A stretch of 64,000 bases of DNA, taken from assembly GCF_055900595.2 (NCBI RefSeq), contig NZ_CM148325.1. The stretch is one strand, 5' to 3'. This document shows, piece by piece, positions 129 through 47,306 of this stretch; position 1 is the first letter of the stretch, and each line of letters opens with the position of its first letter. Under the pieces are notes generated by a model. The model saw only the letters and a list, made by a program, of their open reading frames with translations, searched no databases and was not told where the DNA came from. Position numbers and translations under genes: made by a program.

Positions 129-1358
129 TTAGCTAAAGAACATTACCGATACGCACAGGATACCCACGATCAGCGTAATCAGATTTCCGATGGAACGCCA
201 GGGTTTAAGCGCCGGGATGAGATATGTTGACAGCGTAGGCATGATGAAAAGTATCATGGCAATGAGCGGGCCGCTGATCGCGTAAATCATCGAAATCGCG
301 TTCGGGTTAATGCAACAAACAAAGAAGGTAATGAGCGATACCAACATAATTGATAGTGCGCGGTTAAATGCACGACTTTTCTTTACACCAACCTGCTGTA
401 GTGTTGTTTTGACGACCTCCGTGGCACCTTCAATAACGCCAAAGTACGTACCCAGGAATGATTTCGACATCGCAACTACTGCGACAATAATCCCGGAAAT
501 TGACAACCATGCTGGGGCGTTCGGCAGCATAGAAAGCGCCGATAAAATGGTAACCCCTTCTTCTTTAGCCGCTTCAATATACGAAGGTGGAATAGAAAGC
601 AGGCAGCTAAAGACAAAGAACAGTACACTTATGCAGATGATGAGATAAGCGACTTTCATAATTTTTTTGCATTTATCCATAGCGTGTTCGCCATATTTTT
701 CACGTCTGTCTATGGCAAACGTAGAAATAATGGGCGTATGGCTAAAGGCGAAAACCATCACGGGAATCGATATCCATATCTGGTGAAGGGTATTCTGATT
801 GAACTCTACCTGGGTAGTTAATAGATCAGGTTGCCAACTACCGACCAGGTAAATAGATAGAAATAAGAAATAGGCAATCAATGGGAATACCAAAAATCCC
901 ATTACCCGAATAGTGGCATGGCGTCCCATCAGAAAAATGAGATTCAGAATTAATACAACACCCAGACTCACCAACATACGGATGCGAAGATCAATAACCA
1001 TATGCTTTGCCAGCTGTTCCGTAAGTGAGTTGGTAATTGCCACGGCATATATCAACACGACGACAAAAAAGGCGATGAAGTACAGCGTGGTAATCAGATT
1101 ACCAATCTTCTTGCCATAGTAGTGTGTTACCGCGCCCGTTATCCCTTCACCTGCTGATGTTTTTGATGAGAGGATGAATTGGCATAAGGCTTTATGTGGC
1201 CAATATGTTAAAGGCCAGGCGACCAGAGCAGTAATAAACAGGACCACAGCCCCTGCCGAACCTAACTGAATAGGAAGGAAGAGCGTGCCTGCACCAACGG
1301 CTGTGCCGTAGAGTGCGAAACTCCACAGAGTTTCTTCTTTTGACCAAATCTTAGACAT
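129..1358 (-). CDS. yqeG: Putative amino-acid (HAAAP/SdaC-TdcC-like) transporter YqeG
   Basis: 409-aa ORF, highly hydrophobic multi-pass membrane protein; divergent from yqeF as in the E. coli yqeG-yqeF arrangement. Confidence 0.85.
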   Translation of the reverse strand: MSKIWSKEETLWSFALYGTAVGAGTLFLPIQLGSAGAVVLFITALVAWPLTYWPHKALCQFILSSKTSAGEGITGAVTHYYGKKIGNLITTLYFIAFFVVVLIYAVAITNSLTEQLAKHMVIDLRIRMLVSLGVVLILNLIFLMGRHATIRVMGFLVFPLIAYFLFLSIYLVGSWQPDLLTTQVEFNQNTLHQIWISIPVMVFAFSHTPIISTFAIDRREKYGEHAMDKCKKIMKVAYLIICISVLFFVFSCLLSIPPSYIEAAKEEGVTILSALSMLPNAPAWLSISGIIVAVVAMSKSFLGTYFGVIEGATEVVKTTLQQVGVKKSRAFNRALSIMLVSLITFFVCCINPNAISMIYAISGPLIAMILFIMPTLSTYLIPALKPWRSIGNLITLIVGILCVSVMFFS

Positions 1359-1612
1359 TATTTGAACGTATCATCTACAAATTAAACAAAATGGAGGGCA
1401 ATTTACCATAAACCAGGTTCAGTATGGGAGATTAACGCCATATCTACCCCTCTATTGGTGGGTTAGTGGTTGCAAACCTTACGTGCCAGTTATGTCTCTG
1501 AGTGCTGGTCAGGCGTATTTCCTTTGTGATAAAAATCACTTTTTTTAAACAATTAAGATAACTGTAATTAACAATCATTTACTATTGCACTGTCAATTGG
1601 TGCGAGGTTGTG

Positions 1613-2794
1613 ATGAAAGACGTTGTGATTGTCGGGGCGTTACGGACACCTATCGGCTGTTTTCGTGGTGCGTTAGCGGGTCATTCCGCCGTGGAACTTG
1701 GCAGCCTGGTCGTGAAAGCGTTAATAGAACGTACCGGTGTTTCTGCATATGCGGTGGATGAAGTGATTCTTGGTCAGGTGTTGACTGCAGGGGCAGGGCA
1801 AAATCCGGCAAGGCAATCGGCTATTAAAGGTGGTCTTCCTAACAGCGTTTCTGCAATCACTATTAATGACGTTTGCGGTTCCGGGCTTAAAGCACTGCAT
1901 CTGGCTACTCAGGCGATCCAGTGTGGCGAGGCGGATATTGTCATCGCCGGTAGCCAGGAAAACATGAGCCGCGCACCACACGTTCTTACAGATAGCCGCA
2001 CCGGTGCACAGCTTGGCAATAGCCAGTTGGTTGATAGTCTGGTGCATGACGGCTTGTGGGATGCCTTCAATGATTATCATATTGGTGTCACCGCCGAAAA
2101 TCTGGCTCGCGAATATGGCATCAGCCGTCAGTTGCAGGATGCTTACGCACTTAGCTCGCAACAAAAAGCGCGAGCGGCGATTGACGCCGGACGATTTAAA
2201 GATGAAATCGTCCCGGTAATGACCCAAAGTAACGGTCAGGCGTTGGTTGTTGATACCGATGAACAGCCACGCACTGACGCCAGTGCAGAAGGCTTGGCCC
2301 GTTTAAATCCTTCATTTGATAGTCTCGGTTCTGTGACAGCGGGTAATGCATCATCCATAAACGATGGCGCAGCTGCGGTAATGATGATGAGCGAAGCCAA
2401 AGCGCGAGCGTTGAATTTACCCGTGCTTGCCCGCATTCGCGCATTTGCCAGCGTTGGTGTAGATCCGGCATTAATGGGAATTGCGCCGGTGTATGCGACA
2501 CGCCGTTGCCTGGAACGTGTCGGCTGGCAGTTGGCTGATGTCGATCTTATTGAGGCTAATGAAGCGTTTGCTGCTCAGGCGCTTTCGGTTGGCAAGATGC
2601 TTGAATGGGATGAGCGTCGGGTCAATGTTAATGGTGGCGCGATCGCGCTCGGTCACCCAATAGGCGCGTCCGGTTGCCGAATCCTGGTTTCTCTGGTTCA
2701 TGAAATGGTGAAACGTAATGCCCGCAAAGGACTGGCTACGCTTTGTATCGGCGGGGGCCAGGGCGTGGCATTGACCATTGAACGTGACGAATAG
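1613..2794 (+). CDS. yqeF: Acetyl-CoA C-acetyltransferase (thiolase II family) YqeF
   Basis: 393 aa from ATG at 1613 (track ORF begins one codon earlier at GTG); thiolase motifs including active-site Cys in NDVCGSGLKA and C-terminal CIGGGQG. Confidence 0.9.
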   Translation: MKDVVIVGALRTPIGCFRGALAGHSAVELGSLVVKALIERTGVSAYAVDEVILGQVLTAGAGQNPARQSAIKGGLPNSVSAITINDVCGSGLKALHLATQAIQCGEADIVIAGSQENMSRAPHVLTDSRTGAQLGNSQLVDSLVHDGLWDAFNDYHIGVTAENLAREYGISRQLQDAYALSSQQKARAAIDAGRFKDEIVPVMTQSNGQALVVDTDEQPRTDASAEGLARLNPSFDSLGSVTAGNASSINDGAAAVMMMSEAKARALNLPVLARIRAFASVGVDPALMGIAPVYATRRCLERVGWQLADVDLIEANEAFAAQALSVGKMLEWDERRVNVNGGAIALGHPIGASGCRILVSLVHEMVKRNARKGLATLCIGGGQGVALTIERDE

Positions 2795-2950
2795 CTCTGC
2801 ATTTCCTCCTTACCGATAAATATCAGCCGTCATTAATCTGTTGAATAATGGTGGCTGGCGAGTCGACATACATTTTCAGGGCTCCCTGATTTTTCCATTC
2901 TCATGACATATTCGTGATCGACACTGCACTTTTTTCAGTCCTTACCTTAA

Positions 2951-2971
2951 AAATGAAATATTGTTTTATTT
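2951..2971. promoter_or_regulatory. KdgR-type operator upstream of kduI
   Basis: aaatgaaatattgttttattt closely matches the palindromic KdgR box AAATGAAACA-N-TGTTTCATTT; lies about 110 bp upstream of the kduI start. Confidence 0.5.
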
Positions 2972-3080
2972 TTAATTGAAAACCCTATCCCGTGGGCATA
3001 TCATCCCCTTATAGAGAAAACGAAACAGCGTTTCACTATCGTTTTCTATTTTCACGCTTCACTGATTATCGGAGGTTGAT

Positions 3081-3917
3081 GTGGACGTAAGACAGAGCAT
3101 CCACAGTGCGCATGCAAAAACGCTGGATACCCAGGGGTTGCGCAATGAATTTTTGGTTGAAAAGGTATTTGTCGCCGATGAGTACACCATGGTTTACAGC
3201 CACATTGACCGTATTATTGTTGGCGGCATTATGCCGGTAACTAAAACGGTTTCCGTTGGCGGGGAAGTTGGTAAACAACTCGGGGTAAGCTATTTCCTGG
3301 AACGTCGCGAGCTAGGTGTTATCAATATTGGCGGTGCCGGTACGATTACCGTCGATGGTCAATGCTATGAAATCGGTCACCGCGAAGCCCTGTATGTTGG
3401 TAAAGGCGCAAAAGAAGTTGTCTTTGCCAGTATTGATACCGCTACTCCGGCGAAGTTTTATTACAATTGCGCACCTGCGCATACGACGTATCCCACCAAA
3501 AAAGTCACACCGGACGAAGTATCTCCAGTCACGTTAGGCGATAACCTCACCAGCAACCGTCGCACGATTAACAAATATTTTGTCCCGGATGTGCTGGAAA
3601 CCTGCCAATTGAGTATGGGGCTGACGGAGCTGGCTCCGGGTAACTTGTGGAACACCATGCCGTGTCACACCCACGAGCGCCGGATGGAAGTTTATTTCTA
3701 TTTCAATATGGATGATGACGCCTGCGTTTTCCACATGATGGGGCAGCCGCAAGAAACGCGTCATATTGTGATGCATAACGAGCAGGCGGTGATCTCCCCG
3801 AGCTGGTCGATCCATTCCGGTGTCGGAACCAAAGCTTATACCTTTATCTGGGGCATGGTCGGTGAAAACCAGGTCTTTGATGATATGGACCATGTGGCCG
3901 TTAAAGATTTGCGCTAG
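3081..3917 (+). CDS. kduI: 4-deoxy-L-threo-5-hexosulose-uronate ketol-isomerase
   Basis: 278-aa ORF with GTG start preceded by ggagg RBS; cupin-type KduI sequence, followed by kduD. Confidence 0.93.
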
Positions 3918-3946
3918 TTGTGGGCATAAACGAATAAGGTATTGTT

Positions 3947-4708
3947 ATGATTTTAAGTGCATTTTCTCTCGAAGGTAAAGTTGCGGTCGTCACTGGTTGT
4001 GATACTGGACTGGGTCAGGGGATGGCGTTGGGGCTGGCGCAAGCGGGCTGTGACATTGTTGGCATTAACATCGTTGAACCGACTGAAACCGTCAAGCAGG
4101 TCACGGCGCTGGGGCGTCGTTTTTTAAGCCTGACCGCCGATCTGCGAAAGATTGATGGTATTCCTGGACTGCTGGATCGCGCGGTAGCTGAGTTTGGTCA
4201 TATTGATATCCTGGTGAATAACGCCGGATTGATTCGGCGCGAAGATGCTCTCGAGTTCAGCGAAAAAGACTGGGACGATGTCATGAACCTGAATATCAAG
4301 AGCGTATTCTTCATGTCTCAGGCAGCGGCGAAACACTTTATCGCACAAGGCAATGGCGGCAAGATTATCAATATCGCGTCAATGCTCTCCTTCCAGGGCG
4401 GGATCCGTGTGCCTTCTTATACCGCATCAAAAAGCGGCGTGATGGGCGTGACGCGATTGATGGCGAATGAATGGGCTAAACACAACATTAATGTTAATGC
4501 GATAGCTCCGGGTTACATGGCGACCAACAATACTCAACAACTACGGGCAGATGAACAACGTAGCGCGGAAATTCTCGACCGCATTCCAGCTGGCCGTTGG
4601 GGACTGCCGAGTGACCTGATGGGGCCGGTAGTGTTTCTTGCCTCCAGTGCTTCAGATTATGTGAATGGTTATACCATTGCCGTGGATGGCGGTTGGCTGG
4701 CTCGTTAA
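3947..4708 (+). CDS. kduD: 2-dehydro-3-deoxy-D-gluconate 5-dehydrogenase (SDR family)
   Basis: 253 aa; short-chain dehydrogenase with N-terminal TGCDTGLG Rossmann motif and YTASK catalytic motif; adjacent to kduI. Confidence 0.93.
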   Translation: MILSAFSLEGKVAVVTGCDTGLGQGMALGLAQAGCDIVGINIVEPTETVKQVTALGRRFLSLTADLRKIDGIPGLLDRAVAEFGHIDILVNNAGLIRREDALEFSEKDWDDVMNLNIKSVFFMSQAAAKHFIAQGNGGKIINIASMLSFQGGIRVPSYTASKSGVMGVTRLMANEWAKHNINVNAIAPGYMATNNTQQLRADEQRSAEILDRIPAGRWGLPSDLMGPVVFLASSASDYVNGYTIAVDGGWLAR

Positions 4709-4730
4709 TCCATTCTTCTTACTTTTATGA

Positions 4731-4754
4731 CCCTGCCGCATGGCAGGGTTTTTT
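4731..4754 (+). terminator. Rho-independent terminator after kduD
   Basis: Hairpin ccctgcc-gcat-ggcaggg followed by a run of six T. Confidence 0.7.
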
Positions 4755-4965
4755 ATACCTGTAGATCATCATAATCCATATCATGGTTATGAAATAATCC
4801 ATATCAATTATCAATTAGTGAACTTTATGAATTTTATCTGCTTTAAAATTAGTTGGTTAATAATAATCTCAATAATTCAACTTAATTTGAAAATTGGAAT
4901 ATCCATCACATAACGACATGTCGCAGCAATTTAATCCATATTTATGCTATTTCCGACCTGACACC

Positions 4966-4983
4966 TGTGTGAATTGTTCACGT
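4966..4983. promoter_or_regulatory. CRP-like site in araE promoter region
   Basis: tgtgaattgttcacg fits the TGTGA-N6-TCACA consensus; upstream tccata-type repeats resemble AraC half-sites. Confidence 0.45.
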
Positions 4984-5022
4984 ATTTTTTCACTATGTCT
5001 TACTCTCTGCTGGCAGGAAAAA

Positions 5023-6441
5023 ATGGTTACTATCAATACGGAATCTGCTTTAACGCCACGTTCTTTGCGGGATACGCGGCGTATGAATATGTTTGTTTCG
5101 GTAGCTGCTGCGGTCGCAGGATTGTTATTTGGTCTTGATATCGGCGTAATCGCCGGAGCCTTGCCGTTCATTACCGATCACTTTGTGCTGACCAGCCGTT
5201 TGCAGGAATGGGTGGTTAGTAGCATGATGCTCGGCGCAGCAATTGGTGCGCTGTTTAATGGGTGGCTGTCGTTCCGCCTGGGGCGTAAATACAGCCTGAT
5301 GGCGGGGGCTATCCTTTTTGTGCTCGGTTCGATAGGGTCCGCTTTTGCGACCAGCGTAGAGATGTTAATCGCCGCTCGTGTGGTGCTGGGCATTGCTGTC
5401 GGGATCGCGTCTTACACCGCTCCTCTGTATCTTTCTGAAATGGCAAGTGAAAACGTTCGCGGTAAGATGATCAGTATGTACCAGTTGATGGTCACACTCG
5501 GCATCGTGCTGGCGTTTTTATCCGATACAGCGTTCAGTTATAGCGGTAACTGGCGCGCAATGTTGGGGGTTCTTGCTTTACCAGCAGTCCTGCTGATTAT
5601 TCTGGTGGTCTTCCTGCCAAATAGCCCGCGCTGGCTGGCGGAAAAGGGGCGTCATATTGAGGCGGAAGAAGTGTTGCGTATGCTGCGCGATACGTCGGAA
5701 AAAGCGCGAGAAGAACTCAACGAAATTCGTGAAAGCCTGAAGTTAAAACAGGGCGGTTGGGCACTGTTTAAGATCAACCGTAACGTCCGTCGTGCTGTGT
5801 TTCTCGGTATGTTGTTGCAGGCGATGCAGCAGTTTACCGGTATGAACATCATCATGTACTACGCGCCGCGTATCTTCAAAATGGCGGGCTTTACGACCAC
5901 AGAACAACAGATGATTGCGACTCTGGTCGTAGGGCTGACCTTTATGTTCGCCACCTTCATTGCGGTCTTTACGGTAGATAAAGCAGGGCGTAAGCCGGCT
6001 CTGAAAATTGGTTTCAGCGTGATGGCGTTAGGCACTCTGGTGCTGGGTTACTGCCTGATGCAGTTTGATAACGGTACGGCTTCCAGTGGCTTGTCCTGGC
6101 TCTCTGTTGGCATGACGATGATGTGTATTGCCGGTTATGCGATGAGCGCCGCGCCAGTGGTGTGGATCCTGTGCTCTGAAATTCAGCCGCTGAAATGCCG
6201 CGATTTTGGCATCACCTGCTCAACGACGACAAACTGGGTGTCGAATATGATTATCGGCGCGACCTTCCTGACACTGCTTGATAGCATTGGCGCTGCCGGT
6301 ACGTTCTGGCTCTACACTGCGCTGAACATTGCGTTTGTGGGCATCACTTTCTGGCTCATTCCGGAAACCAAAAATGTCACGCTGGAACATATCGAACGCA
6401 AACTGATGGCAGGCGAGAAGTTGAGAAATATCGGCGTCTGA
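5023..6441 (+). CDS. araE: Arabinose:H+ symporter (MFS sugar porter)
   Basis: 472 aa from ATG at 5023 ([15 protein letters not shown]...), preceded by aggaaa RBS; the track ORF start at 4894 is an upstream in-frame extension through the promoter; MFS sugar transporter motifs. Confidence 0.92.
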
Positions 6442-6447
6442 TTTCAC

Positions 6448-6480
6448 GGGCCGGATGTGCTGTACATCCGGCCCTTTTTT
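6448..6480 (+). terminator. Rho-independent terminator after araE
   Basis: 11-bp stem gggccggatgt/acatccggccc with 5-nt loop, followed by a run of six T. Confidence 0.75.
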
Positions 6481-6569
6481 CGTTAATAGAGATTGGGCAC
6501 CTGGCCGTTGAGGCGTTTGTCTCGTTCCTTATTCAGCCTTGTTGCGGTAACACACATCAGGAGAGAGGA

Positions 6570-7262
6570 ATGAAAACAATTGGTTTGCTGGGAGGAATGA
6601 GTTGGGAATCCACTATTCCTTATTATCGTCTGATTAATGAAGGTATTAAACAGCGGCTTGGTGGGCTTCACTCTGCGCAAGTGCTGCTACATAGCGTCGA
6701 TTTTCATGAAATAGAAGAGTGCCAGCGTCGCGGCGAGTGGGACAAAACCGGGGATATTCTGGCTGAGGCGGCGCTTGGCTTACAGCGGGCGGGCGCAGAA
6801 GGCATTGTGTTATGTACCAACACGATGCACAAAGTGGCGGATGCCATTGAGTCTCGTTGCTCTCTGCCTTTCTTACATATAGCGGATGCCACTGGACGTG
6901 CAATTATCCGGGCTGGGATGACTCGTGTGGCGCTGCTGGGTACGCGTTACACCATGGAACAGGATTTTTATCGCGGGCGGCTGACGGAACAATTTTCCAT
7001 CAACTGTCTCATTCCTGAAGCGGATGAACGGGCGAAAATTAATCAGATTATTTTTGAAGAACTGTGTCTGGGGCAATTTACCGAAGCGTCACGCACTTAT
7101 TATGCGCAAGTGATTGCTCGCCTTGCAGAACAGGGCGCACAGGGTGTCATTTTTGGCTGTACGGAAATTGGTTTACTGGTGCCAGACGAGCGCAGTGTTC
7201 TGCCTGTGTTTGATACCGCGGCGATCCATGCCGAGGATGCTGTCGCTTTTATGCTGTCGTAG
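6570..7262 (+). CDS. ygeA: Asp/Glu/hydantoin-family amino-acid racemase YgeA
   Basis: 230-aa ORF with racemase-like sequence; position between araE and lysR matches K-12 order. Confidence 0.85.
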
Positions 7263-8184
7263 CTGACGACAAAATAGCGTCAAGAGAAGTGACCAGTTTC
7301 GGTAATCCCGCTTGTAAATGCTCACTAAACGCCTGAACCAGCGCTGATGACGGGCGGTGCAGGGGGCGGATCAGGCTGACGGTGAACGGAACCGCAATAC
7401 TGAACCGCCGCACTACTAAACCGCTTGCCGCATAATCCAGTGCGGTGAGCGGGTTAACCACAGAAACACCTACCCCCGCCCGTACCATTGCGCAGACTGA
7501 CGCGGCGCTGTGGGTTTCTACGATCATGCGTCGTTTAACCTGATTCTCAGTAAACAATTGATCCAGCAACTGGCGATAGCTGTCAGTACGGGAAAGGCTG
7601 ATGTAGTTCTCACCCTGAAAATCATCCGGCGTTAATACCTTTTTTACCGCCAGCGGATGACCCGGAGGTAACACACACACTTCATCTAAAGAGAGTAATT
7701 CGGTACGTTCTGTTCCCGCAGGCGTATGGAGCGTTTCAGTGAGTCCTAAATCATGACGCTGGGCCGAGAGCCACTCTTCAAGTAGCGGTGATTCCTGGGG
7801 CACGATGTTTAAGCTGACATCGGGATAACGTGCCAGAAAGGGTTGCAGGAGCTGCGGTAAAAAAGATTGCGAAAAGACCGGCAGGCAGGCAATAGACAGT
7901 TCTCCCTGGCGAAACTCGCGCAGACTTTCTGCGGCACTGACAATGCGATCCAGTCCGTACCAGGATCGTTGCACTTCTTCAAACAGACGCAGTCCTTGCA
8001 CGGTAGGATGTAATCGTCCACGTATGCGCTCAAACAATTTCAGCCCGATCACCTTCTCAAAGCGCGCCAGTTCGCGGCTGACGGTTGGCTGTGAGGTGTG
8101 TAGCAGGTGTGCTGCCTCAGTCAGGCTTCCGGCGGTCATTACCGCATGAAAAATTTCAATATGACGTAAGTTAACGGCAGCCAT
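7249..8184 (-). CDS. lysR: LysR transcriptional activator of lysA
   Basis: 311 aa; N-terminal HTH ([23 protein letters not shown]), divergent from lysA. Confidence 0.93.
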
Positions 8185-8305
8185 TAGCGCTCTCTCGCAA
8201 TCCGGTAATCCATATCATTTTTGCATAGACTCGACATAAATCGATATTTTTTATTCTTTTTATGATGTGGCGTAATCATAAAAAAGCACTTATCTGGAGT
8301 TTGTT
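8185..8305. promoter_or_regulatory. lysR-lysA divergent promoter/operator region
   Basis: 121-bp AT-rich intergenic segment between divergently transcribed lysR and lysA; a canonical LTTR-regulated arrangement. Confidence 0.5.
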
Positions 8306-9568
8306 ATGCCACATTCACTGTTCAGCACCGATACCGACCTCACCGCCGAAAATCTGCTGCGTTTGCCCGCAGAATTTGGCTGCCCGGTGTGGGTCTACGA
8401 TGCGCAAATTATTCGTCGGCAGATTGCAGCGCTAAAACAGTTTGATGTGGTGCGCTTCGCACAGAAAGCCTGTTCCAATATTCATATTTTGCGCTTAATG
8501 CGTGAGCAGGGCGTAAAAGTGGATTCCGTCTCGTTAGGCGAAATAGAGCGTGCACTGGTGGCGGGTTACAATCCGCAAACGCACCCCGATGATATTGTTT
8601 TTACGGCAGATGTTATCGATCAGGCGACGATTGAACGCGTCAGTGAATTGCAAATTCCGGTGAATGCGGGTTCTGTTGATATGCTCGACCAACTGGGTCA
8701 GGTTTCGCCAGGGCATCGGGTATGGCTGCGTGTTAATCCGGGGTTTGGTCACGGGCATAGCCAAAAAACCAATACCGGTGGCGAAAACAGCAAGCACGGT
8801 ATCTGGTATACCGACCTGCCCGCCGCACTGGAAGTGATACAACGTCATCATCTGCAGCTGGTCGGTGTTCACATGCATATTGGTTCCGGCGTTGATTACG
8901 CACATCTGGAGCAGGTGTGTGGTGCTATGGTGCGTCAGGTCATCGAATTTGGTCAGGATTTACAGGCTATTTCTGCGGGCGGTGGGCTTTCTATTCCTTA
9001 TCAACAGGGTGAAGAGGCGGTTGATACCGAACATTATTATGGTCTGTGGAATGCCGCGCGTGAGCAAATCGCCCGCCATTTGGGCCATCCTGTGAAACTG
9101 GAAATTGAACCGGGTCGCTTTCTGGTAGCGCAGGCTGGCGTATTAATTACTCAAGTGCGGAGCGTCAAACAAATGGGTAGCCGCCACTTTGTGCTGGTTG
9201 ATGCCGGGTTCAACGATCTGATGCGCCCGGCAATGTACGGTAGTTACCACCATATCAGTGCCCTGGCATCTGATGGTCGTTCTCTGGAACACGCACCAAC
9301 GGTGGAAACCGTCGTCGCCGGACCGTTATGTGAATCGGGCGATGTCTTTACCCAGCAGGAAGGGGGAAATGTTGAAACCCGCGCCTTGCCGGAAGTGAAG
9401 GCGGGTGATTATCTGGTACTGCATGATACGGGGGCATATGGCGCATCAATGTCATCCAACTACAACAGCCGTCCGCTGTTACCAGAAGTTCTGTTTGATA
9501 ATGGTCAGGCGCGGTTGATTCGCCGTCGCCAGACCATTGAAGAATTACTGGCGCTGGAATTGCTTTAA
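8306..9568 (+). CDS. lysA: Diaminopimelate decarboxylase
   Basis: 420 aa; PLP-dependent Orn/DAP decarboxylase fold; classic lysR-lysA pairing. Confidence 0.94.
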   Translation: MPHSLFSTDTDLTAENLLRLPAEFGCPVWVYDAQIIRRQIAALKQFDVVRFAQKACSNIHILRLMREQGVKVDSVSLGEIERALVAGYNPQTHPDDIVFTADVIDQATIERVSELQIPVNAGSVDMLDQLGQVSPGHRVWLRVNPGFGHGHSQKTNTGGENSKHGIWYTDLPAALEVIQRHHLQLVGVHMHIGSGVDYAHLEQVCGAMVRQVIEFGQDLQAISAGGGLSIPYQQGEEAVDTEHYYGLWNAAREQIARHLGHPVKLEIEPGRFLVAQAGVLITQVRSVKQMGSRHFVLVDAGFNDLMRPAMYGSYHHISALASDGRSLEHAPTVETVVAGPLCESGDVFTQQEGGNVETRALPEVKAGDYLVLHDTGAYGASMSSNYNSRPLLPEVLFDNGQARLIRRRQTIEELLALELL

Positions 9569-9574
9569 CTGCGG

Positions 9575-10606
9575 TTAGTCGCTGGTTGCATGATGACTTG
9601 CCTCCAGCGACGGAGTTGACACTGAATGGCGACGTACCAGCGTCGGACTAAAGACATTAGTGATTTCCGGGAGAGGGCGATTATCAGCCAGCGCCAAAGC
9701 CAGTTCGGCAGCCTGGGTCGCCATCGTCACGATTGGGTAACGCACGGTGGTCAGACGCGGGCGCACATAGCGTGACACCAGCACATCATCAAAGCCAATT
9801 AACGAAATCTCACCCGGTACATCAATACCATTATCATTGAGAACGCCCATCGCGCCCGCTGCCATTGAATCGTTATAACAGGCTACCGCAGTGAAATTTC
9901 TTCCTCGCCCCAAAAGCTCGGTCATTGCCTGTTCGCCGCCGCTTTCGTCCGGTTCGCCAAACGTCACCAGCCGATCATTGGCCGGAATACCACTTTCAGC
10001 GAGGGCATCGTAATAACCCTGCAGACGATCTTCGGCGTCAGAAATAGAGTGGTTAGAGCACAAATAACCAATGCGGGTATGACCTTGTTGAATTAGATGA
10101 CGCGTTGCCAGCCAGGCACCGTAACGGTCGTCCAGAGCAATACAACGGTTTTCAAAGCCAGGCAGGATACGGTTGATCAGCACCATACCGGGCATTTGTT
10201 TCATTAATGAGGCTAAGTCGGCATCCGGGATCATTTTGGCATGGACGACCAGCGCAGCGCAGCGATGGCGGATCAGTTGCTCAATGGCCTGACGCTCTTT
10301 TTGCTCGTTGTGGTAACCGTTGCCAATCAATAAGAAATTACCGGTGTGATAAGCCACCTGTTCGACCGCTTTCACCATTGCACCGAAAAACGGATCGGAA
10401 ACATCACCAACGACCAGACCGATCGTTTCAGTGGTCTGCTGCGCCAGCGCACGGGCGTTGGCGTTCGGGTGATAGCTAAGAGACTCCATTGCACTATGCA
10501 CAGCCAGTCGGGAAGCTTCGCTGGCTTTGGGTGAATTATTAATGACGCGGGAAACGGTGGCGACTGAAACGCCTGCCAGTCGGGCTACATCCTTTATGGT
10601 CGCCAT
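9575..10606 (-). CDS. galR: Galactose repressor (LacI family)
   Basis: 343 aa; N-terminal MATIKDVARLAGVSVATVSRVIN LacI-type HTH. Confidence 0.93.
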   Translation of the reverse strand: MATIKDVARLAGVSVATVSRVINNSPKASEASRLAVHSAMESLSYHPNANARALAQQTTETIGLVVGDVSDPFFGAMVKAVEQVAYHTGNFLLIGNGYHNEQKERQAIEQLIRHRCAALVVHAKMIPDADLASLMKQMPGMVLINRILPGFENRCIALDDRYGAWLATRHLIQQGHTRIGYLCSNHSISDAEDRLQGYYDALAESGIPANDRLVTFGEPDESGGEQAMTELLGRGRNFTAVACYNDSMAAGAMGVLNDNGIDVPGEISLIGFDDVLVSRYVRPRLTTVRYPIVTMATQAAELALALADNRPLPEITNVFSPTLVRRHSVSTPSLEASHHATSD

Positions 10607-40191: not shown

Positions 40192-41445
40192 ATGTCGGGA
40201 TCCAACACAGCAATCAGCCGTCGTCGTTTACTGCAAGGCGCGGGTGCCATGTGGCTATTGAGCGTAAGTCAGGTCAGTCTGGCTGCGGTCAGCCAGGTCG
40301 TGGCGGTGCGCGTCTGGCCTGCGTCCAGCTACACCCGTGTGACGGTAGAATCTAATCGTCAGCTGAAATATAAGCAGTTCGCGTTGAGTAACCCTGAACG
40401 CGTGGTGGTGGATATCGAAGATGTAAACCTGAACTCAGTGCTCAAGGGGATGGCGGCACAAATTCGTGCTGATGACCCGTTCATCAAGTCGGCGCGCGTC
40501 GGGCAGTTTGACCCGCAAACCGTGCGGATGGTTTTTGAGTTAAAGCAAAACGTAAAACCGCAGCTGTTTGCCCTTGCTCCGGTCGCCGGGTTTAAAGAGC
40601 GTCTGGTGATGGATCTCTATCCTGCCAATGCTCAGGACATGCAGGACCCGCTGCTGGCGCTGCTGGAGGATTACAATAAAGGCGATCTCGAAAAGCAGGT
40701 GCCGCCTGCGCAGAGTGGCCCGCAGCCAGGCAAAGCAGGGCGCGATCGTCCGATTGTCATTATGCTTGACCCTGGCCATGGCGGCGAAGACTCCGGTGCG
40801 GTGGGGAAATACAAAACGCGTGAAAAAGATGTGGTATTGCAAATTGCCCGCCGTTTGCGCTCTCTGATTGAGAAAGAGGGCAATATGAAAGTTTACATGA
40901 CCCGTAATGAAGACATCTTCATTCCGTTGCAAGTGCGCGTAGCAAAAGCACAGAAACAGCGTGCTGACTTGTTTGTCTCTATTCATGCCGATGCCTTTAC
41001 CAGTCGCCAGCCGAGCGGTTCCTCTGTGTTTGCGCTCTCTACCAAAGGTGCAACCAGTACCGCGGCAAAATATCTGGCGCAAACTCAGAACGCCTCGGAC
41101 TTGATTGGTGGCGTGAGTAAGAGCGGCGACCGTTATGTCGACCATACTATGTTCGATATGGTGCAGTCGCTGACCATTGCCGACAGTCTGAAGTTTGGTA
41201 AAGCTGTGTTGAATAAGCTCGGTAAAATCAACAAGCTGCATAAAAATCAGGTTGAACAAGCCGGGTTTGCCGTGCTGAAAGCGCCTGATATACCCTCCAT
41301 TTTGGTCGAAACGGCGTTTATCAGTAACGTTGAGGAAGAACGTAAACTGAAAACGGCAACCTTCCAGCAGGAAGTTGCGGAATCAATCCTCGCAGGGATA
41401 AAAGCGTATTTTGCCGATGGGGCGACGCTGGCGAGAAGGGGATAA
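40192..41445 (+). CDS. amiC: N-acetylmuramoyl-L-alanine amidase AmiC
   Basis: 417 aa from ATG at 40192 ([23 protein letters not shown]... Tat-type RR signal); gggaga RBS; Amidase_3 catalytic domain. Confidence 0.94.
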
Positions 41446-41613
41446 TGTTTTTATTTATTCAATGAATTTATATTTCGTTGAATAGATAATATTTACCTGA
41501 ATATTAGACGTTGGTTTTGTGACTGATGTCGAATATTTGAATGTCGGCTTGAAAAATAAGCCGACCATCTCTTTAATTAAGCACAATTCCGTGTAATGTA
41601 TATGCATTAGTTA

Positions 41614-41647
41614 ATCATCTTGTAACTGTTAAATCAGGCAAGGCAAT
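41614..41647 (+). promoter_or_regulatory. RAT (ribonucleic antiterminator) element in the operon leader
   Basis: tcatcTTGTaACTGtTAAAtCAGGCAAggCa resembles the SacY/LicT/BglG RAT consensus GGATTGTTACTGATAAAGCAGGCAAAACC; its 3' part overlaps the left arm of the following terminator. Confidence 0.6.
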
Positions 41648-41691
41648 GTTTGAAGTAATTATTACTTCTGACGTGCCTTGCCTTTTTTTTT
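41638..41691 (+). terminator. Leader rho-independent terminator overlapping the RAT
   Basis: Outer stem ggcaaggca/tgccttgcc (41638-41646 and 41674-41682) with an inner stem gaagtaat/attacttc, followed by T9 (41683-41691). Confidence 0.7.
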
Positions 41692-41702
41692 GGAGCTATG
41701 GA

Positions 41703-42527
41703 ATGATCATCGAAAAAGTCATGAACAATAATTGTGTACAGGCATCGATGAATGGACAGGAGGTTATCATTTCTGGGCCTGGCGTCGGTTACAACAAAAA
41801 ATATGGAATGTCGGTCCCTGAGCATCCGGCTAACCGGATTTTTTATGTCAGAAATGAACAAAAAAATAAACTCTACAAATTGATTGAACATGTGGATATT
41901 GAGTATGTTTTTGTTGCCGAAAAAATAGTGCAATATGCGGAGAACAATCTCGAAAAAAATCTCAATCCATCGCTACTATTGATTCTTGCTGATCATATTT
42001 CGAATGCAATATCCCGAGTCGCTTCAGGCATACAAATTAATAATGTTTTCCTTGATGAAATCAAAGCGTTGTACAAAGCAGAGTATGCGATAAGTCGCGA
42101 TGCATTAACTATCATTAATGAGCAATTCAGCGTTCAACTTCCTGATGATGAGATTGGTTTTATAGCATTGCATATTTTAAATAATTATGAAAATTCAGTT
42201 GATTATGAATCAGTACGGATTATTGAGTTGTCGCAAATAATCACGGGGCTTATTGAAGTTGTTTATAACAGAAAGGTGGACAGAAGTTCATTTAATTATT
42301 CCAGGTTCATGATACACCTTAAATATTTTTCAAGTCGCGTATTATGCAATGAAAAAATAAAACAGAAAGATATTGGTGATCTCTATGAACAGTTTCTTGA
42401 GAAAGACATTCTGTTACAGCGCGCAATTCATGAAATTGAAAGGTATTTGTACGCCACTTTTAAATATGAATTGATTTTGGAAGAAAAACTATATCTCTCT
42501 ATTCGCACCAAAGTATTAATGGACTGA
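41703..42527 (+). CDS. BglG/LicT/SacY-family transcriptional antiterminator (CAT domain plus two PRDs)
   Basis: 274 aa from ATG at 41703 (MIIEKVMNNNCVQASMNGQEVIISGPGVGYNKK = CAT RNA-binding domain); conserved His in PRD-like segments (IGFIALHILNN, RFMIHLKYFSS); ggag RBS 7 nt upstream. The track start at 41646 lies inside the terminator hairpin. Confidence 0.8.
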   Translation: MIIEKVMNNNCVQASMNGQEVIISGPGVGYNKKYGMSVPEHPANRIFYVRNEQKNKLYKLIEHVDIEYVFVAEKIVQYAENNLEKNLNPSLLLILADHISNAISRVASGIQINNVFLDEIKALYKAEYAISRDALTIINEQFSVQLPDDEIGFIALHILNNYENSVDYESVRIIELSQIITGLIEVVYNRKVDRSSFNYSRFMIHLKYFSSRVLCNEKIKQKDIGDLYEQFLEKDILLQRAIHEIERYLYATFKYELILEEKLYLSIRTKVLMD

Positions 42528-42558
42528 TTATATATAACATTTATATGAGATAACCCGC

Positions 42559-44139
42559 ATGAAACAAAAGAAAGCCTGGAGTTTTTTTCAGAGCCTGGGA
42601 AAGGCATTTATGTATCCCATCGCTCTGCTAAGTGTATGTGGCATGATGTTAGGGCTAGGAAGTGGTTTAGCCAGCGATGATATGGCAAAATTAATTCCAC
42701 TACTGGCTATTCCCGTAATTAAAACCATTCTTGATTTTATTGTTAGCCTTGGTTTGTTTGCCTTTGTCAATTTACCTGTATTGTTTGCGATAGCTATACC
42801 TCTGGGGTTATTAAAAGAGAAAGAGGATAAAGCCTATGGCGCTTTTTCTGGCTTAATTGGTTTCATGGCGATGCATCTGGGAACGAACTTTTATCTTAAA
42901 CAACATGACTTATTGGTCGCTGCTGATCAAATGTCGACACATGGGCAAACCATTATTCTGGGAATCCAGTCCTACAATACCAGTGTGTTGGGTGGGATTA
43001 TAGCAGGATTATTAGTCGCCAGTATGTATAAAAAGATCGTTAACTTACGTATTCCTGAATCATTAGGATTTTATAGTGGCCCACGCCTGGTGCCTATTAT
43101 TACACTGATTGTGATGAGCGGATTTGGTCTGATCATCCCTTTTATCTGGCCGCCATTTTTCAATCTTTTCATGCTCATTGGCCACTGGATTTCAACTTCC
43201 GGTCCTGTTGGCTATTTTTTCTATGCAGTCGCCGAACGCGTGACGATACCTTTTGGTTTAAATCACCTGGTGACGTCAGTTTTCCGCTTTACCCCCATCG
43301 GCGGATCGGCAGTGATCGGCGGAGAAGAGTATTATGGCACCCTGAACATGTTTATGGCGTACGTCAAAGAGAATGCGGTCATTCCGCTGGATTTGGCGGG
43401 GAAAATGGAACAGGGCAAACTGATGATTCAGTATGGTCTGGCTGGTGCCGCGCTGGCGATGTATCGCACTGCTCATGCTCAAAACAGAAAAGCTATCAAA
43501 GCATTGCTTATTTCCGGGGTGCTTACAGTCATTATTGGCGGCGTCAGCGAACCGATTGAGTTTCTGTTCTTATTTGTCAGTCCACTGCTATTTGTCTTCC
43601 ATGCTTTTATGAATGGATTCGCCAACATGGTCTTGCCATATATGGGCGTGAAGATGGGATTTACTGGCGATCTGATTCAATTTATTAGCTTTGGCGTATT
43701 GCGTGGCACAAGAACAGGTTGGCCAATAGCGGTGTGTGTCGAAGTGGCCTATTTCTTTATTTATTACTTTGTGTTCCGTTGGACTATTCTCAAATTTAAC
43801 CTGATGACGGTAGGCCGTGAAGAGTCCAGTCCTGTCACGCTGAACGCTCATGAGGATACGGCTATAGCGGATATCCCACCGCTTGATAAATCAGAGCTGC
43901 AAGCAGCGGAGCAGATGGTTAAGGCACTTGGTGGTAAAGAGAATATTAAATCCCTGGATAATTGCGTAACTCGTTTACGTTTAACAATCGCAGATATGGG
44001 ATTGATTGACGAGGCAGCAATAAAAAGAGCTGGCGGAATTGCGGTTGTTAAACTTGATCAAAATACCCTACAAGTCATTATCGGTACTAAAGTCATCGCC
44101 TTGCGTCGGGATATGGATAACTACATGGGGATATGCTGA
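42559..44139 (+). CDS. PTS glucose-family EIICB permease (no EIIA domain)
   Basis: 526 aa; about 10 TM segments (EIIC) then a C-terminal EIIB domain with phosphorylatable Cys in NCVTRLRLTIADMGL...AVVKLDQNTLQVIIGTK. Confidence 0.85.
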   Translation: MKQKKAWSFFQSLGKAFMYPIALLSVCGMMLGLGSGLASDDMAKLIPLLAIPVIKTILDFIVSLGLFAFVNLPVLFAIAIPLGLLKEKEDKAYGAFSGLIGFMAMHLGTNFYLKQHDLLVAADQMSTHGQTIILGIQSYNTSVLGGIIAGLLVASMYKKIVNLRIPESLGFYSGPRLVPIITLIVMSGFGLIIPFIWPPFFNLFMLIGHWISTSGPVGYFFYAVAERVTIPFGLNHLVTSVFRFTPIGGSAVIGGEEYYGTLNMFMAYVKENAVIPLDLAGKMEQGKLMIQYGLAGAALAMYRTAHAQNRKAIKALLISGVLTVIIGGVSEPIEFLFLFVSPLLFVFHAFMNGFANMVLPYMGVKMGFTGDLIQFISFGVLRGTRTGWPIAVCVEVAYFFIYYFVFRWTILKFNLMTVGREESSPVTLNAHEDTAIADIPPLDKSELQAAEQMVKALGGKENIKSLDNCVTRLRLTIADMGLIDEAAIKRAGGIAVVKLDQNTLQVIIGTKVIALRRDMDNYMGIC

Positions 44140-45314
44140 TGGATGTTTTTAATACTCCTATTTCCCGCAAAGGAACATATTGTACCCAATGGGACTTTTG
44201 CGAGGACAGATTTGGTGTAAAAGATGTATTACCATTCTCTATTTCAGATATGGATCTTCCGATACCGGAAGCTATCATCAGGGCATTAAAAAAACGTCTG
44301 GAACACCCGATTTTAGGGTACAGCCGTTGGCAGCATGATGACTATCTGAATGCGATAGTCAATTGGTATCATCAACAATATAAAACTGAAATCAAACCAG
44401 AATGGATCACCTATAGCCCAAGCGTGATGTACTCCATTGCTAAAGCAATAGAGTTATTGACATCGCATGGTGATAATATTCTCGTTTTTACACCTGTCTA
44501 TAATGCATTTTTTGATATAATTAAACATAGTGAGAGAAATATTCTGACAGCCTCTTTGATTATAAAAAATGAGGGGGGCTACGCTATCAATTGGCAAGAT
44601 TTTGATCTTAAGATTCAAAGCGCAAAGATGGTGTTATTATGTAATCCTCATAACCCGACAGGAACCGTCTGGTCGGAAGAAGATCTGCATAAAATCGCTG
44701 CAAGCTGTGCAAGACATAATGTCTGGTTATGTTCAGATGAAATTCACAGTGATTTTGTTTTTAATCGTAGCTTTACATCTGCGCTTAAAATAAAAAAAGA
44801 AAAAGTAGTGGTGTTTAATTCGATATCGAAGACATTTAATGTTCCCGCGCTAACAGGATCGTATATGATTTCAACTGACGATAATTTTAATCATAAGTTC
44901 AGAACGATATCAAGATATCGCGATTTTGTAAACTCCCCATCCGTACTGAATATAATTGCAACTATTATTGCCTATAACGAATGTGAGGGATGGTTAAAGT
45001 CATTAAAGGCACATATTGCCTCTAACATTCAATTCACCCAGCAGTATCTGAACGAAAATACTCCAGAATTGATCGTAAGGCCAGCTGATGGTTGCTATTT
45101 TTCGTGGATAGATTGCTCTGCTATTGGTTATCCATTTGATGAATTCTACAGTCGATTAATTCATGAAGGCAAAGTGGGCATTATGGCGGGGAATGTCTAT
45201 GGAACGGAGGGGGAGGGCTACCTTCGTCTGAACCTGGCCTGCGGTCGAGAAAAATTATATATGGGGCTTACGCGTCTTGCGAGTGTAATTAAAAATATTA
45301 ATCAAGGAAAATAA
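44133..45314 (+). CDS. PLP-dependent aminotransferase class I/II, MalY/PatB-like C-S lyase
   Basis: 393 aa; NPHNPTG motif and Schiff-base Lys in NSISKTFN; start overlaps the PTS gene stop (ATGCTGATGGA). Confidence 0.8.
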   Translation: MLMDVFNTPISRKGTYCTQWDFCEDRFGVKDVLPFSISDMDLPIPEAIIRALKKRLEHPILGYSRWQHDDYLNAIVNWYHQQYKTEIKPEWITYSPSVMYSIAKAIELLTSHGDNILVFTPVYNAFFDIIKHSERNILTASLIIKNEGGYAINWQDFDLKIQSAKMVLLCNPHNPTGTVWSEEDLHKIAASCARHNVWLCSDEIHSDFVFNRSFTSALKIKKEKVVVFNSISKTFNVPALTGSYMISTDDNFNHKFRTISRYRDFVNSPSVLNIIATIIAYNECEGWLKSLKAHIASNIQFTQQYLNENTPELIVRPADGCYFSWIDCSAIGYPFDEFYSRLIHEGKVGIMAGNVYGTEGEGYLRLNLACGREKLYMGLTRLASVIKNINQGK

Positions 45315-45316
45315 AA

Positions 45317-45913
45317 ATGAACAGCACGGATCTTATCCATCTCATTAAACATTTTATGCGTAACGAACATAAAGCAGTTGAAGAAGTTATTGATTCCCCC
45401 CTTTCGGAGGTTGCAAATTTAATTAAAGTATTACAGTCTTGTCAGGGGAAAGTTGTTTTTATTGGTGTCGGTAAGTCCGGTATTATTGCCCGAAAACTCG
45501 CCGCAACATTTGCCAGCACTGGAACTCCCTCGTTTTTTGTTCACGGTACTGAAGCCGTACACGGCGATCTTGGGATGGTGGCGAAAGATGATGTTGTTAT
45601 TCTTATTTCAAACAGTGGTGAGACGACAGAAATCCTGGCAACACTACCTAGTCTGAAAAAAATGGGTAATTATTTGATCTCCTTTACCCGCAGTCATCGC
45701 TCATCGCTTGCGATAAGTTGTGATTTATCCGTTGAAATTCCCGTAAAAAGTGAGGCGGATAATTTAGGTTTAGCGCCGTCATGCTCATCAACAGTCGTTC
45801 TGGTTGTTGGTGATGCGGTGGCGCTTGCGCTCTCCGAATTGAAAAAGTTTACTCGTGCTGATTTCGGCTTATATCATCCAGGAGGTGCGCTCGGTATTAA
45901 AGCAAACTCATAA
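45317..45913 (+). CDS. SIS-domain sugar-phosphate isomerase (KdsD/GutQ-like catalytic domain without CBS domains)
   Basis: 198 aa; VVFIGVGKSGIIARKLAATFASTGTPSFFVHGTEAVHGDLGMV...ISNSGET...HPGGALG closely resembles the SIS core of arabinose-5-phosphate isomerases; no C-terminal CBS pair. Confidence 0.8.
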   Translation: MNSTDLIHLIKHFMRNEHKAVEEVIDSPLSEVANLIKVLQSCQGKVVFIGVGKSGIIARKLAATFASTGTPSFFVHGTEAVHGDLGMVAKDDVVILISNSGETTEILATLPSLKKMGNYLISFTRSHRSSLAISCDLSVEIPVKSEADNLGLAPSCSSTVVLVVGDAVALALSELKKFTRADFGLYHPGGALGIKANS

Positions 45914-45983
45914 TTTTAGAATATAAAACAGTAACCGGTCACGCCATCTTTTGGGGTGGCGTTCATTGATGTGAGTGTCAGCT

Positions 45984-46931
45984 ATGAAAAACGTTCTGGT
46001 CACCGTTCCCAGCTTTTCAGCGCGTTGTGTTTCTGCCAGCAAGCTGCTAAGAGAAAATCATTTTAACCTTATTATCAAGAATAATGTGGAGCATCTGGTT
46101 AAATCAGAATCCACAGTATTACGAGAATCTATTTGCGCAGTCATTGCCGGAAAAGATTGTTATCAAGCGGATACGTTATCGCGACTACCAGGAGTGAAAA
46201 TAATATCGAGATTCGGGACAGGGATTGATAATATTGATCTTCATACGGCTCGACAATCAGGTATTGTGGTCAATAATGCTGTTGGGATTAATTCAAATGC
46301 AGTCGCGGAATTTATCATTGGTCTTATTTTTGCGAGCATGAGAAATATCCCCGGTAGCTATCATGCGATGCAAAATGGTTATTGGGGCGAGTCGCATGGC
46401 TGCGAGTTACAAGGTAAACGTATTGGCCTGCTTGGCTACGGCAATATTGGCAAAACACTGGCGAAAAGGTTATCTGGTTTTGATGTTGAGCTTTTAGCTT
46501 TTGACAAACAACCCGATTTCCAGGCCGCAGGCAAAGATGGAGTTCAGTTCGTATCAATTGAAGATATCTTTATGCAGTCTCATGTCATCATCGTTCTTTT
46601 GCCATTTTCTCCTGAGCTGGAGAACTTCATTAGTCATAAATATTTGTCGATGATGCGCAATGGTGCTCTTATCATCAACGCCGCAAGGGGAAAGTTGCTG
46701 GATGAGGGGGCTTTACTTCAGGTAATTGAAGAACGAAATGTTTTTGCAGCACTGGATGTGTTTAGCTCTGAACCGCTAGCGCAATTTAGCCCATTGCTAC
46801 ATGCCAGGAATATCATTACAACGCCGCATATTGCGGCCGCCACCGTTGAGTCATACCAGCAAACCGGGATATACGTTGCCAGGTCGATAATAGATTTCTT
46901 TGCAGGAAGGGAGATAAAAAACGTGCTGTGA
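45984..46931 (+). CDS. D-isomer-specific 2-hydroxyacid dehydrogenase family, NAD(P)-binding
   Basis: 315 aa from ATG at 45984 (MKNVLVTVPSF...; the track ORF starts 3 codons earlier at GTG); GLLGYGNIGKTLAKRL nucleotide-binding motif; catalytic-region motifs NAARGKLLDE and TPHIAAAT. Confidence 0.8.
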   Translation: MKNVLVTVPSFSARCVSASKLLRENHFNLIIKNNVEHLVKSESTVLRESICAVIAGKDCYQADTLSRLPGVKIISRFGTGIDNIDLHTARQSGIVVNNAVGINSNAVAEFIIGLIFASMRNIPGSYHAMQNGYWGESHGCELQGKRIGLLGYGNIGKTLAKRLSGFDVELLAFDKQPDFQAAGKDGVQFVSIEDIFMQSHVIIVLLPFSPELENFISHKYLSMMRNGALIINAARGKLLDEGALLQVIEERNVFAALDVFSSEPLAQFSPLLHARNIITTPHIAAATVESYQQTGIYVARSIIDFFAGREIKNVL

Positions 46932-46957
46932 GTTCAGCTAAGGAAGATTTCAGGTAC

Positions 46958-46991
46958 AAAAAAACCGCAATCTGTGAAACACATTGCGGTT
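46958..46991 (-). terminator. Terminator of the tRNA-fMet operon (bidirectional hairpin)
   Basis: Stem aaccgcaat/attgcggtt with 11-nt loop; on the minus strand it is followed by a U7 tract (the A-run 46958-46964), 19 nt downstream of the tRNA 3' end. Confidence 0.65.
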
Positions 46992-47009
46992 TATCAGCAT
47001 CATAAGTGT

Positions 47010-47086
<77 letters not shown>

Positions 47087-47119
47087 TCACCGTACTGCTT
47101 TACTTCATCAAATTTTGAT

Positions 47120-47196
<77 letters not shown>

Positions 47197-47229
47197 TCAC
47201 CGTACTGCTTTACTTCATCAAATTTTAAT

Positions 47230-47306
<77 letters not shown>

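Follow-up and report, generated by a model that had tools for sequence, protein, structure and literature searches.

A MalX/MalY-like gene pair beside amiC as part of the paf cassette of Escherichia coli

What does a permease gene of the MalX kind do in front of a gene for a MalY-like lyase, when the two lie outside the maltose system? The question is raised by positions 42,559 to 45,314 of a 64,000-nucleotide stretch of DNA (NCBI RefSeq assembly GCF_055900595.2, contig NZ_CM148325.1), which at its full length we call the window. Here a gene for an enzyme IICB (EIICB) permease of the phosphotransferase system (PTS) is followed by one for a pyridoxal phosphate (PLP)-dependent lyase of the MalY/PatB family. 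A preliminary description of the pair, made from the letters alone, had named both genes, and its gene identities were real and correctly read. We consider it likely that the region is the paf (c3405-c3410) operon of pathogenic E. coli, a horizontally acquired PTS cassette that regulates itself and that would work along the lines proposed below. The locus and the MalY resemblance of its lyase have already been annotated and published.

The evidence for this identity is in the gene set, the gene order, the chromosomal site and the proteins, all of which agree with paf. In strain CFT073 the same five genes are found in the same order beside amiC (C_RS16160-16180; pafR-pafP-c3407-c3406-c3405, in the pathogenicity island PAI-CFT073-metV). 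The window proteins are nearly identical to those of CFT073: 98% for the antiterminator and the EIICB, 96% for the lyase, 97% for the SIS-domain isomerase and 93% for the dehydrogenase. The features of the window that the argument needs are as follows; gene starts of the antiterminator and the lyase are those of the Prokaryotic Genome Annotation Pipeline (PGAP), and RAT stands for ribonucleic antiterminator.

Ends at 41445: amiC, the left edge of the island.
41619..41642, plus strand: RAT-like hairpin, the presumed antiterminator site (CTTG-TAA-CTG, loop TTAAAT, CAG-G-CAAG, as read from the sequence).
41636..41691, plus strand: intrinsic terminator, a long stem, GGCAAGGCA...TGCCTTGCC, with nine consecutive T behind it.
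41703..42527, plus strand: PRD antiterminator of the LicT/BglG family, 274 amino acids (PafR, c3409 of CFT073).
42559..44139, plus strand: PTS EIICB permease of the glucose/maltose family, 526 amino acids, with a C-terminal EIIB domain that has the cysteine motif NCVTRLR (PafP, c3408).
44139..45314, plus strand: PLP-dependent beta-lyase of the MalY/PatB family, 391 amino acids (c3407).
45317..45913, plus strand: sugar-phosphate isomerase of the KpsF/GutQ type with the SIS domain only and without CBS domains, 198 amino acids (c3406).
45984..46931, plus strand: D-isomer-specific 2-hydroxyacid dehydrogenase resembling phosphoglycerate dehydrogenase (PGDH), 315 amino acids (c3405).
47010..47306, minus strand: three tRNA-Met genes, metZWV, the right edge, followed by mltA.

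The preliminary description had put the pair under an antiterminator, outside the mal system and without a MalI-type repressor. This placement is correct: an antiterminator gene of the LicT/BglG type lies directly upstream, and no MalI homologue was found within 5 kb of the pair. It is also incomplete: the operon counts five genes, among them those of a SIS-only isomerase and a dehydrogenase, and its leader has a RAT and a terminator.

The island stands out by its composition, with a GC content of 33-46% within 41.5-47.0 kb and about 51-58% in the flanks. The window and CFT073 differ at the right edge. In CFT073 the cassette and the tRNA-Met genes are kept apart by a complete type VI secretion cluster with about 26 kb of genes (region 7091-34590; positions given for other genomes are those of the retrieved stretches); the window has nothing between them, and the cassette directly abuts metZWV with an 80-nt gap (46932-47306 region). 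The paf cassette and the secretion cluster are therefore separable modules of "PAI-metV". The two also differ at synonymous sites (dS 0.14-0.43), and the same-site E. coli alleles of the cassette are altogether deeply diverged (dS 0.14-0.49, window 41703-46931 against CFT073 and a second allele), which suggests that the lineages of the alleles are old or that the cassette was acquired more than once. Of 5426 complete E. coli genomes, 1686 (about 31%) hold at least 80% of the 5.5-kb query; a match of at least 99% over the whole query was found in 92 genomes only. All five genes are under purifying selection, with ratios of nonsynonymous to synonymous divergence (dN/dS) of 0.03-0.12. Outside E. 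coli, Citrobacter has the same five genes at another chromosomal site. In Atlantibacter hermannii the cassette is at the same argA-amiC/mltA site, and there the dehydrogenase gene is split into fragments of 132 and 119 amino acids (7850-8797), probably a pseudogene.

Deletion of c3405-c3410 reportedly leaves the strain outcompeted in mice. A 2010 paper listed c3405-c3410 as a "PTS system, maltose/glucose specific" gene set enriched in uropathogenic E. coli (UPEC), and a search of the literature with the locus tags of c3405-c3410 had the synteny paper of Bryant (2010) as its sole match. A 2026 genome paper on strain BEN2908 described the same five reading frames ("GR 19") and remarked on the MalY resemblance and on the repressor role of MalY. 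The names pafR and pafP come to us through reviews citing Baum et al. (2014), by whose account mutants are attenuated in mouse urinary tract infection (UTI) and overexpression of PafR alters genes of biofilm formation, motility and metabolism. On the strength of this cited literature, taken second-hand, paf would be one of the few metabolic islands tied by deletion experiments to the fitness of UPEC in the urinary tract. A search for open-access papers on the biochemistry of c3407 found none.

The two genes of the pair are tightly joined. The EIICB gene ends in ATA TGC TGA, and the A of its stop codon (44137-44139) is the A of the lyase ATG at 44139. The overlap named in the preliminary description stands, and the genes are translationally coupled. 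An alternative in-frame ATG at 44133 would give a lyase of 393 amino acids and an overlap of 7 nt. The isomerase gene follows 2 nt past the lyase stop. Model matches agree with the naming of both proteins (TIGR02004/PRK10110 for the EIICB; TIGR04350 for the lyase), and PGAP labels the lyase "MalY/PatB family protein". The best models for the EIICB are those for MalX, at 536.5 bits for TIGR02004 and 526 bits for PRK10110, both under the curated cut-offs (632.2 and 665). The lyase scores 366.9 bits against TIGR04350 ("PatB family C-S lyase"; curated cut-off 340), and the second-best model 138.7 bits. It thus does not group with ordinary aminotransferases, and its best matches in the PDB are all C-S lyases.

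Is the pair then a second malXY? The likeness is real: in both, an EIICB is followed by a lyase of the PatB/MalY family, with neither an EIIA nor a glycosidase. The identities are only 42% to MalX and 36% to MalY, the malI-malXY locus is governed by MalI, a LacI-type repressor, in place of an antiterminator, and it is without the isomerase and dehydrogenase genes. MalY further has a MalT-binding patch that the window lyase does not. The window in turn has no divergent malI gene. A closer relative is the Clostridioides difficile operon CD3031-CD3027, in the order antiterminator, EIICB (malX), lyase (malY), SIS phosphosugar isomerase and EIIA-Glc. Its first four genes form an orthologous core in the same order, with identities of 68% for the EIICB (CD3030), 48% for the lyase (CD3029), 52% for the isomerase and 36% for the antiterminator. 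Since the window proteins are nearer to CD3030 and CD3029 than to MalX and MalY, we regard the cassette as the orthologue of a Firmicute operon, gained horizontally, and not as a duplicate of malXY. The pairing of the preliminary description is thus upheld, and its rank as a second malXY is not.

The C. difficile operon has its own EIIA-Glc and is without a dehydrogenase; in general the dehydrogenase is found only in the E. coli, Citrobacter and Atlantibacter versions, and the Firmicute versions have an EIIA-Glc gene in its place. By this distribution the dehydrogenase is an enterobacterial addition to the cassette. The leader elements also differ in number and place. C. difficile has four tandem RAT-terminator units between the antiterminator and EIICB genes, and the window has one, ahead of the antiterminator gene. 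The four units are near-identical and about 95 nt each (5995-6390), an unusually redundant attenuator. The RAT cores are common to both operons: TTGTAACTG and CAGGCAA recur in all four C. difficile units.

How is the cassette controlled? The antiterminator has full-length matches to the NCBIfam models LicT (E = 2e-67) and GlcT (2e-52), both under the equivalog cut-offs. PGAP calls it a "PRD domain-containing protein", and Pfam domains CAT_RBD and PRD are on record for its orthologues. The CAT-PRD1-PRD2 layout and the RAT that overlaps an intrinsic terminator are both those of a BglG/LicT-type system. The E. coli bglGFB and Bacillus subtilis licT-bglPH operons likewise join a CAT-PRD-PRD regulator to a cognate permease of the glucose superfamily, and bglG is also preceded by a RAT overlapping an intrinsic terminator. 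The BglG, LicT and SacY systems differ from paf in their enzymes, with a phospho-beta-glucosidase there and a PLP lyase and an isomerase here.

The anatomy required for antitermination by PafR is present in the leader. The 5′ arm of the terminator overlaps the 3′ half of the RAT, and the two structures are therefore mutually exclusive. By RNA folding the terminator reaches -29.8 kcal/mol (z = -3.96), and none of 200 shuffled sequences was as stable. The leader element is kept in the second E. coli allele and in Citrobacter; the RAT hairpin is invariant in both, and the terminator stem shows one compensatory change (G-C to A-T) between the window and Citrobacter. A GGAG lies 7 nt upstream of the antiterminator start at 41703. 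The start at 41646 offered by the list of open reading frames (ORFs) was rejected as not credible because it lies inside the terminator. Rfam had no match in the leader and gave only three tRNAs; it apparently holds no RAT family. Scans with sigma-70 and terminator consensus patterns performed at chance level, and we therefore name no promoter. The scan also missed the leader terminator, because its stem is long and interrupted. Upstream of these elements, at 41543-41565 and about 100 nt past the amiC stop, is a 9-bp GC-rich hairpin, GTCGGCTTG...TAAGCCGAC, which the second E. coli allele shares and Citrobacter lacks, and which may be the amiC terminator.

An alignment of the lyase clade was searched against one genome per species, and the best 80 of at least 560 loci were analyzed. 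In 75 of the 80 the gene just before that of the lyase, on the same strand, encodes a glucose-family EIICB, and a 76th locus is alike except for a frameshift. With the EIICB in that place in 75 of 80 loci of other species, the pairing is not due to chance, nor is it peculiar to E. coli; the module is very widespread and conserved. The EIICB gene before the lyase gene of Bacillus sp. FJAT-25509 falls into two overlapping reading-frame segments (4408-5959) in an otherwise RpiR-type module, a probable frameshift or pseudogene. The remaining four loci, and those of C. intestinale and Latilactobacillus sakei, have the lyase in operons with a different PTS and with M42, M24 or PepT-like aminopeptidases.

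Three kinds of regulator appear among the loci. The Paf type (antiterminator, EIICB, lyase, SIS isomerase) accounts for 11 of the 80, in Enterobacterales and Firmicutes; its hosts are E. coli, Citrobacter, Atlantibacter, Enterobacter, Enterococcus termitis, two Clostridia, Massilicoli and Solobacterium. The MalI type (19/80) is found in Enterobacterales and Vibrionaceae. The RpiR type, in which an RpiR regulator accompanies the EIICB and the lyase, makes up 28/80 (Bacillaceae, Enterococcus and others). NCBIfam had no match for the large regulators found ahead of the pairs in Fusobacterium and Vibrio. Relatedness was judged by identity matrices and average-linkage clusters. By these, the permeases of the Paf type form a clean cluster (n = 16), with at least 61% identity inside and no more than 50% to any permease outside it. 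Pairwise identities of lyases and of permeases are correlated (r = 0.84).

What stands beside the pair bears on its chemistry. The glvA-glvR-glvC (malA-glvR-malP) locus of B. subtilis combines an RpiR regulator, a MalX-like EIICB and one cleaving enzyme. This is the layout of the RpiR-type loci, except that a 6-phospho-alpha-glucosidase of glycoside hydrolase family 4 (GH4) is found where the others have the PLP beta-lyase. In the two RpiR-type loci inspected in detail, those of Gottfriedia and Enterococcus durans, only the regulator, permease and lyase are present, with unrelated genes on either side; in such loci the lyase alone would have to take the PTS product to central metabolites. No glycosidase or kinase gene was seen in the six Paf-type neighborhoods inspected. 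Genes for PepT-like, M42 or M24 aminopeptidases lie beside the lyase and a PTS in Vibrio, Granulicatella, C. intestinale, Peptacetobacter, Olsenella and L. sakei; in two Vibrio species the PepT-like gene directly follows the lyase. In three alphaproteobacterial loci from metagenome-assembled genomes, it is RidA (2-aminoacrylate deaminase) that is encoded right after the lyase.

Some of these peptidase loci deserve a description of their own. The clusters of C. intestinale (910-8179) and L. sakei (PMC5845896) have a PTS of the lactose/cellobiose type together with M42/M24 peptidases. They resemble the unexplained peptidase-PTS operon ypdDEF-fryABC of E. coli. The M42 protein passes PRK09961, an NCBIfam model for aminopeptidases that we take to be the one for YpdE. 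At the Granulicatella locus (3138-9277) a different PTS is combined with a PepT-like peptidase.

From these elements a working scheme can be proposed for the cassette. Transcription from the AT-rich leader would stop at the terminator (41636-41691) unless PafR binds the overlapping RAT hairpin. Following the BglG/LicT paradigm, we infer that PafR is controlled through phosphorylation by the cognate EIIB and HPr, with PafP holding PafR in check until its inhibition is relieved as in the Bgl and Lic systems. PafP would import and phosphorylate a sugar derivative of the glucose family, presumably with the general EIIA-Glc (Crr) as its EIIA, since none is encoded in the five-gene operon. The lyase looks like a catalytically intact PLP beta-lyase: the PLP-binding lysine is present in the alignment to MalY, and Y121, D201, H204, S230, S232, K233 and R365 (MalY numbering) are kept in it and in all 16 Paf-type sequences. 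Across 87 aligned family members these seven positions are near-invariant, with only S230 varying (A in 3). Beta C-S lyase activity has been reported for the relatives from E. coli, C. difficile and L. sakei, and cysteine desulfhydrase activity for the C. difficile orthologue; the RidA genes behind the alphaproteobacterial lyases also speak for an active enzyme. Downstream of the permease, the lyase may carry out an alpha,beta-elimination on what the PTS delivers, with pyruvate, ammonia and a leaving group as products. The SIS-only enzyme would isomerize the released aldose phosphate, and the PGDH-like dehydrogenase may serve as an enterobacterial accessory step.

As to the substrate, gene association leads us to suggest, with low confidence, a sugar carried on the beta-carbon of an amino acid or short peptide, with the lyase in place of a phospho-glycosidase. 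We favor such chemistry because no glycosidase or kinase genes were seen in the inspected modules, the lyase takes the position of a GlvA-type enzyme, and peptidases and RidA recur nearby. Amino-sugar acids of the glucosaminate type (beta-elimination to 2-keto-3-deoxy-6-phosphogluconate, or chain shortening to arabinose-5-phosphate) and bacillithiol-like conjugates were considered and are not put forward, as there was no evidence favoring either.

The same thought can be extended, speculatively and with little confidence, to all EIICB-MalY modules. The paf cassette, malXY and the RpiR-type pairs of Firmicutes may represent a widespread glycosidase-free pathway for sugars on the beta-carbon of serine or cysteine, with glyco-amino acids or glycopeptides from host or diet as substrates. 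After phosphorylation of the sugar by the PTS and shortening of any peptide by linked aminopeptidases, beta-elimination by the lyase would free the sugar phosphate along with pyruvate and ammonia; in the Paf type the released aldose phosphate would pass to the SIS-only isomerase. If this is true, MalX/MalY would at last have a physiological substrate, and the presence of peptidase genes in PTS operons such as ypdDEF, frvX and sgcX would be accounted for.

Several points weigh against the view of paf as a catabolic cassette of this kind. No substrate is known for it, and a glucose-family EIICB offers no obvious route to arabinose-5-phosphate. Mosberg and colleagues are said to have found in 2011 that a single deletion of c3406 is not attenuating in CFT073, and Baum and colleagues reportedly saw in 2014 no induction of the paf promoter in vitro under any condition and left the targets of PafR undefined. 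The lyase is the least constrained gene of the cassette: its dN/dS (0.10-0.12) is the highest of the five, and its identity between E. coli alleles is 87%, against 97% for the EIICB. The lyases of Paf-type loci, unlike the permeases, form no single clean identity cluster, and for this reason we make no claim of lyase monophyly. The activities reported for relatives are generic only (cysteine/cystathionine lyase, amino-acid racemase), and the reported essentiality of malY in C. difficile would be odd if the enzyme were purely catabolic.

These generic activities lead to the rival that survives best, namely, that the lyase is a general enzyme of sulfur amino acids (a cysteine desulfhydrase or cystathionase) that is simply expressed together with the permease, to yield pyruvate or H2S for instance, and that the PTS substrate is not its target. 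In its favor, cleavage of cysteine or cystathionine in vitro is on record for MalY and for its C. difficile counterpart, and C. difficile malY responds to cysteine and SigL. The genomic setting argues otherwise. Adjacency to a PTS permease is strict in essentially all of the 80 loci, over at least five phyla and three regulator types, and in many the stop and start codons overlap; lyase and permease have diverged in a correlated manner; and genes of sulfur metabolism were not seen in any of the dozen neighborhoods inspected. We hold this rival to be unlikely.

Less probable still is the idea that the cassette is chiefly a Bgl-like sensor, in which a signal from the host is picked up by PafP, antitermination by PafR takes place at distant genes for virulence or biofilm formation, and the three enzymes are dispensable passengers. 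The attenuation of pafR and pafP mutants and the broad effects of PafR overexpression, as related in the reviews of Baum et al. (2014), speak for it. Against this, the enzymes have been kept together with the permease from Firmicutes to E. coli and evolve under purifying selection, and the sole clear RAT/terminator that was found is the operon's own leader, as befits autoregulated catabolism. Sensing does not preclude catabolism, nor the reverse.

The last rival is the one that the preliminary description had raised: a bifunctional lyase which, like E. coli MalY, would bind MalT and damp the maltose regulon whenever the cassette is expressed. That MalY (1d2f) is the best solved relative of the lyase (E = 3e-85, 36% identity over 383 residues), and that both stand behind a MalX-like permease, are in its favor. 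In the cryo-electron microscopy study of MalT-MalY, the MalY contacts are A84, C181, D182, E185, S218, N219, A221 and R222. Aligned with MalY, the window lyase has E, E, E, H, L, K, K and K at these positions, so that none of the eight is kept; E185 has become H, and N219 and A221, which face R143 and R147 of MalT at the docking site, are lysines. As reported in the same study, Vibrio furnissii MalY, changed at D182C and S218V only, is already inactive as a repressor. The contact positions are hypervariable in the 87 sequences, including enterobacterial MalY orthologues that share 72-73% identity with the E. coli protein. The ability to bind MalT therefore appears to be a surface trait peculiar to the lineage of E. 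coli MalY. The cassette moreover has its orthologue in Firmicutes, and a related MalY/PTS cluster was reported in L. sakei, an organism without a MalT homologue (PMC5845896). With all eight contact residues lost and the active-site positions kept, interference with MalT is highly improbable.

With this speculative cross-talk removed, and the paf cassette preferred as the frame, the interest of the locus shifts to the substrate of the cassette and to the permease-lyase modules shared across phyla, which bear on the physiological role of MalX/MalY. The lyase behind the permease is an arrangement conserved from Firmicutes to Proteobacteria under three different regulators, and this conservation makes the thirty-year-old question of what MalX and MalY do experimentally approachable. 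The versions from C. difficile, from Vibrio (with the PepT-like peptidase) and from alphaproteobacteria (with RidA) provide independent handles on the chemistry.

The isomerase of the cassette matches the KdsD model with E = 4e-58 over the SIS domain only (model residues 36-201) and scores 191.8 against TIGR00393 (cut-off 203.7), falling short because the CBS part is missing. It is near-identical to the solved structures 5uqi and 5vhu (198 amino acids; E = 9e-121). A SIS domain without the CBS pair, and the identity to c3406, place it in the KpsF/GutQ group; c3406 was published as an arabinose-5-phosphate isomerase, with ribulose-5-phosphate as the product (Mosberg et al. 2011).

Two further observations concern this gene. 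The lyase ORF of the second E. coli allele extends to 402 amino acids and overlaps the SIS gene by 32 nt (retrieved stretch 8001-9774), and several E. coli and Shigella records have fused lyase-SIS ORFs of 550-592 amino acids (Pfam PF00155 and PF01380). The fusions may be frameshift artefacts, pseudogenes or genuine; if genuine, they would be a Rosetta-stone hint that the two enzymes act jointly. Finally, a metagenome contig of Mammaliicoccus lentus has a SIS-only homologue (52% identical) in an operon with an RbsD/FucU mutarotase, a LacI regulator, a PfkB kinase and a transporter of the major facilitator superfamily (4354-8854; order mutarotase, LacI, SIS, kinase, transporter). From its gene content it looks like an operon for catabolism of a pentose, possibly D-arabinose, via arabinose-5-phosphate isomerase in a Gram-positive, and a catabolic role of SIS-only isomerases in Gram-positives, which have no need of 3-deoxy-D-manno-octulosonic acid (Kdo), would therefore fit.

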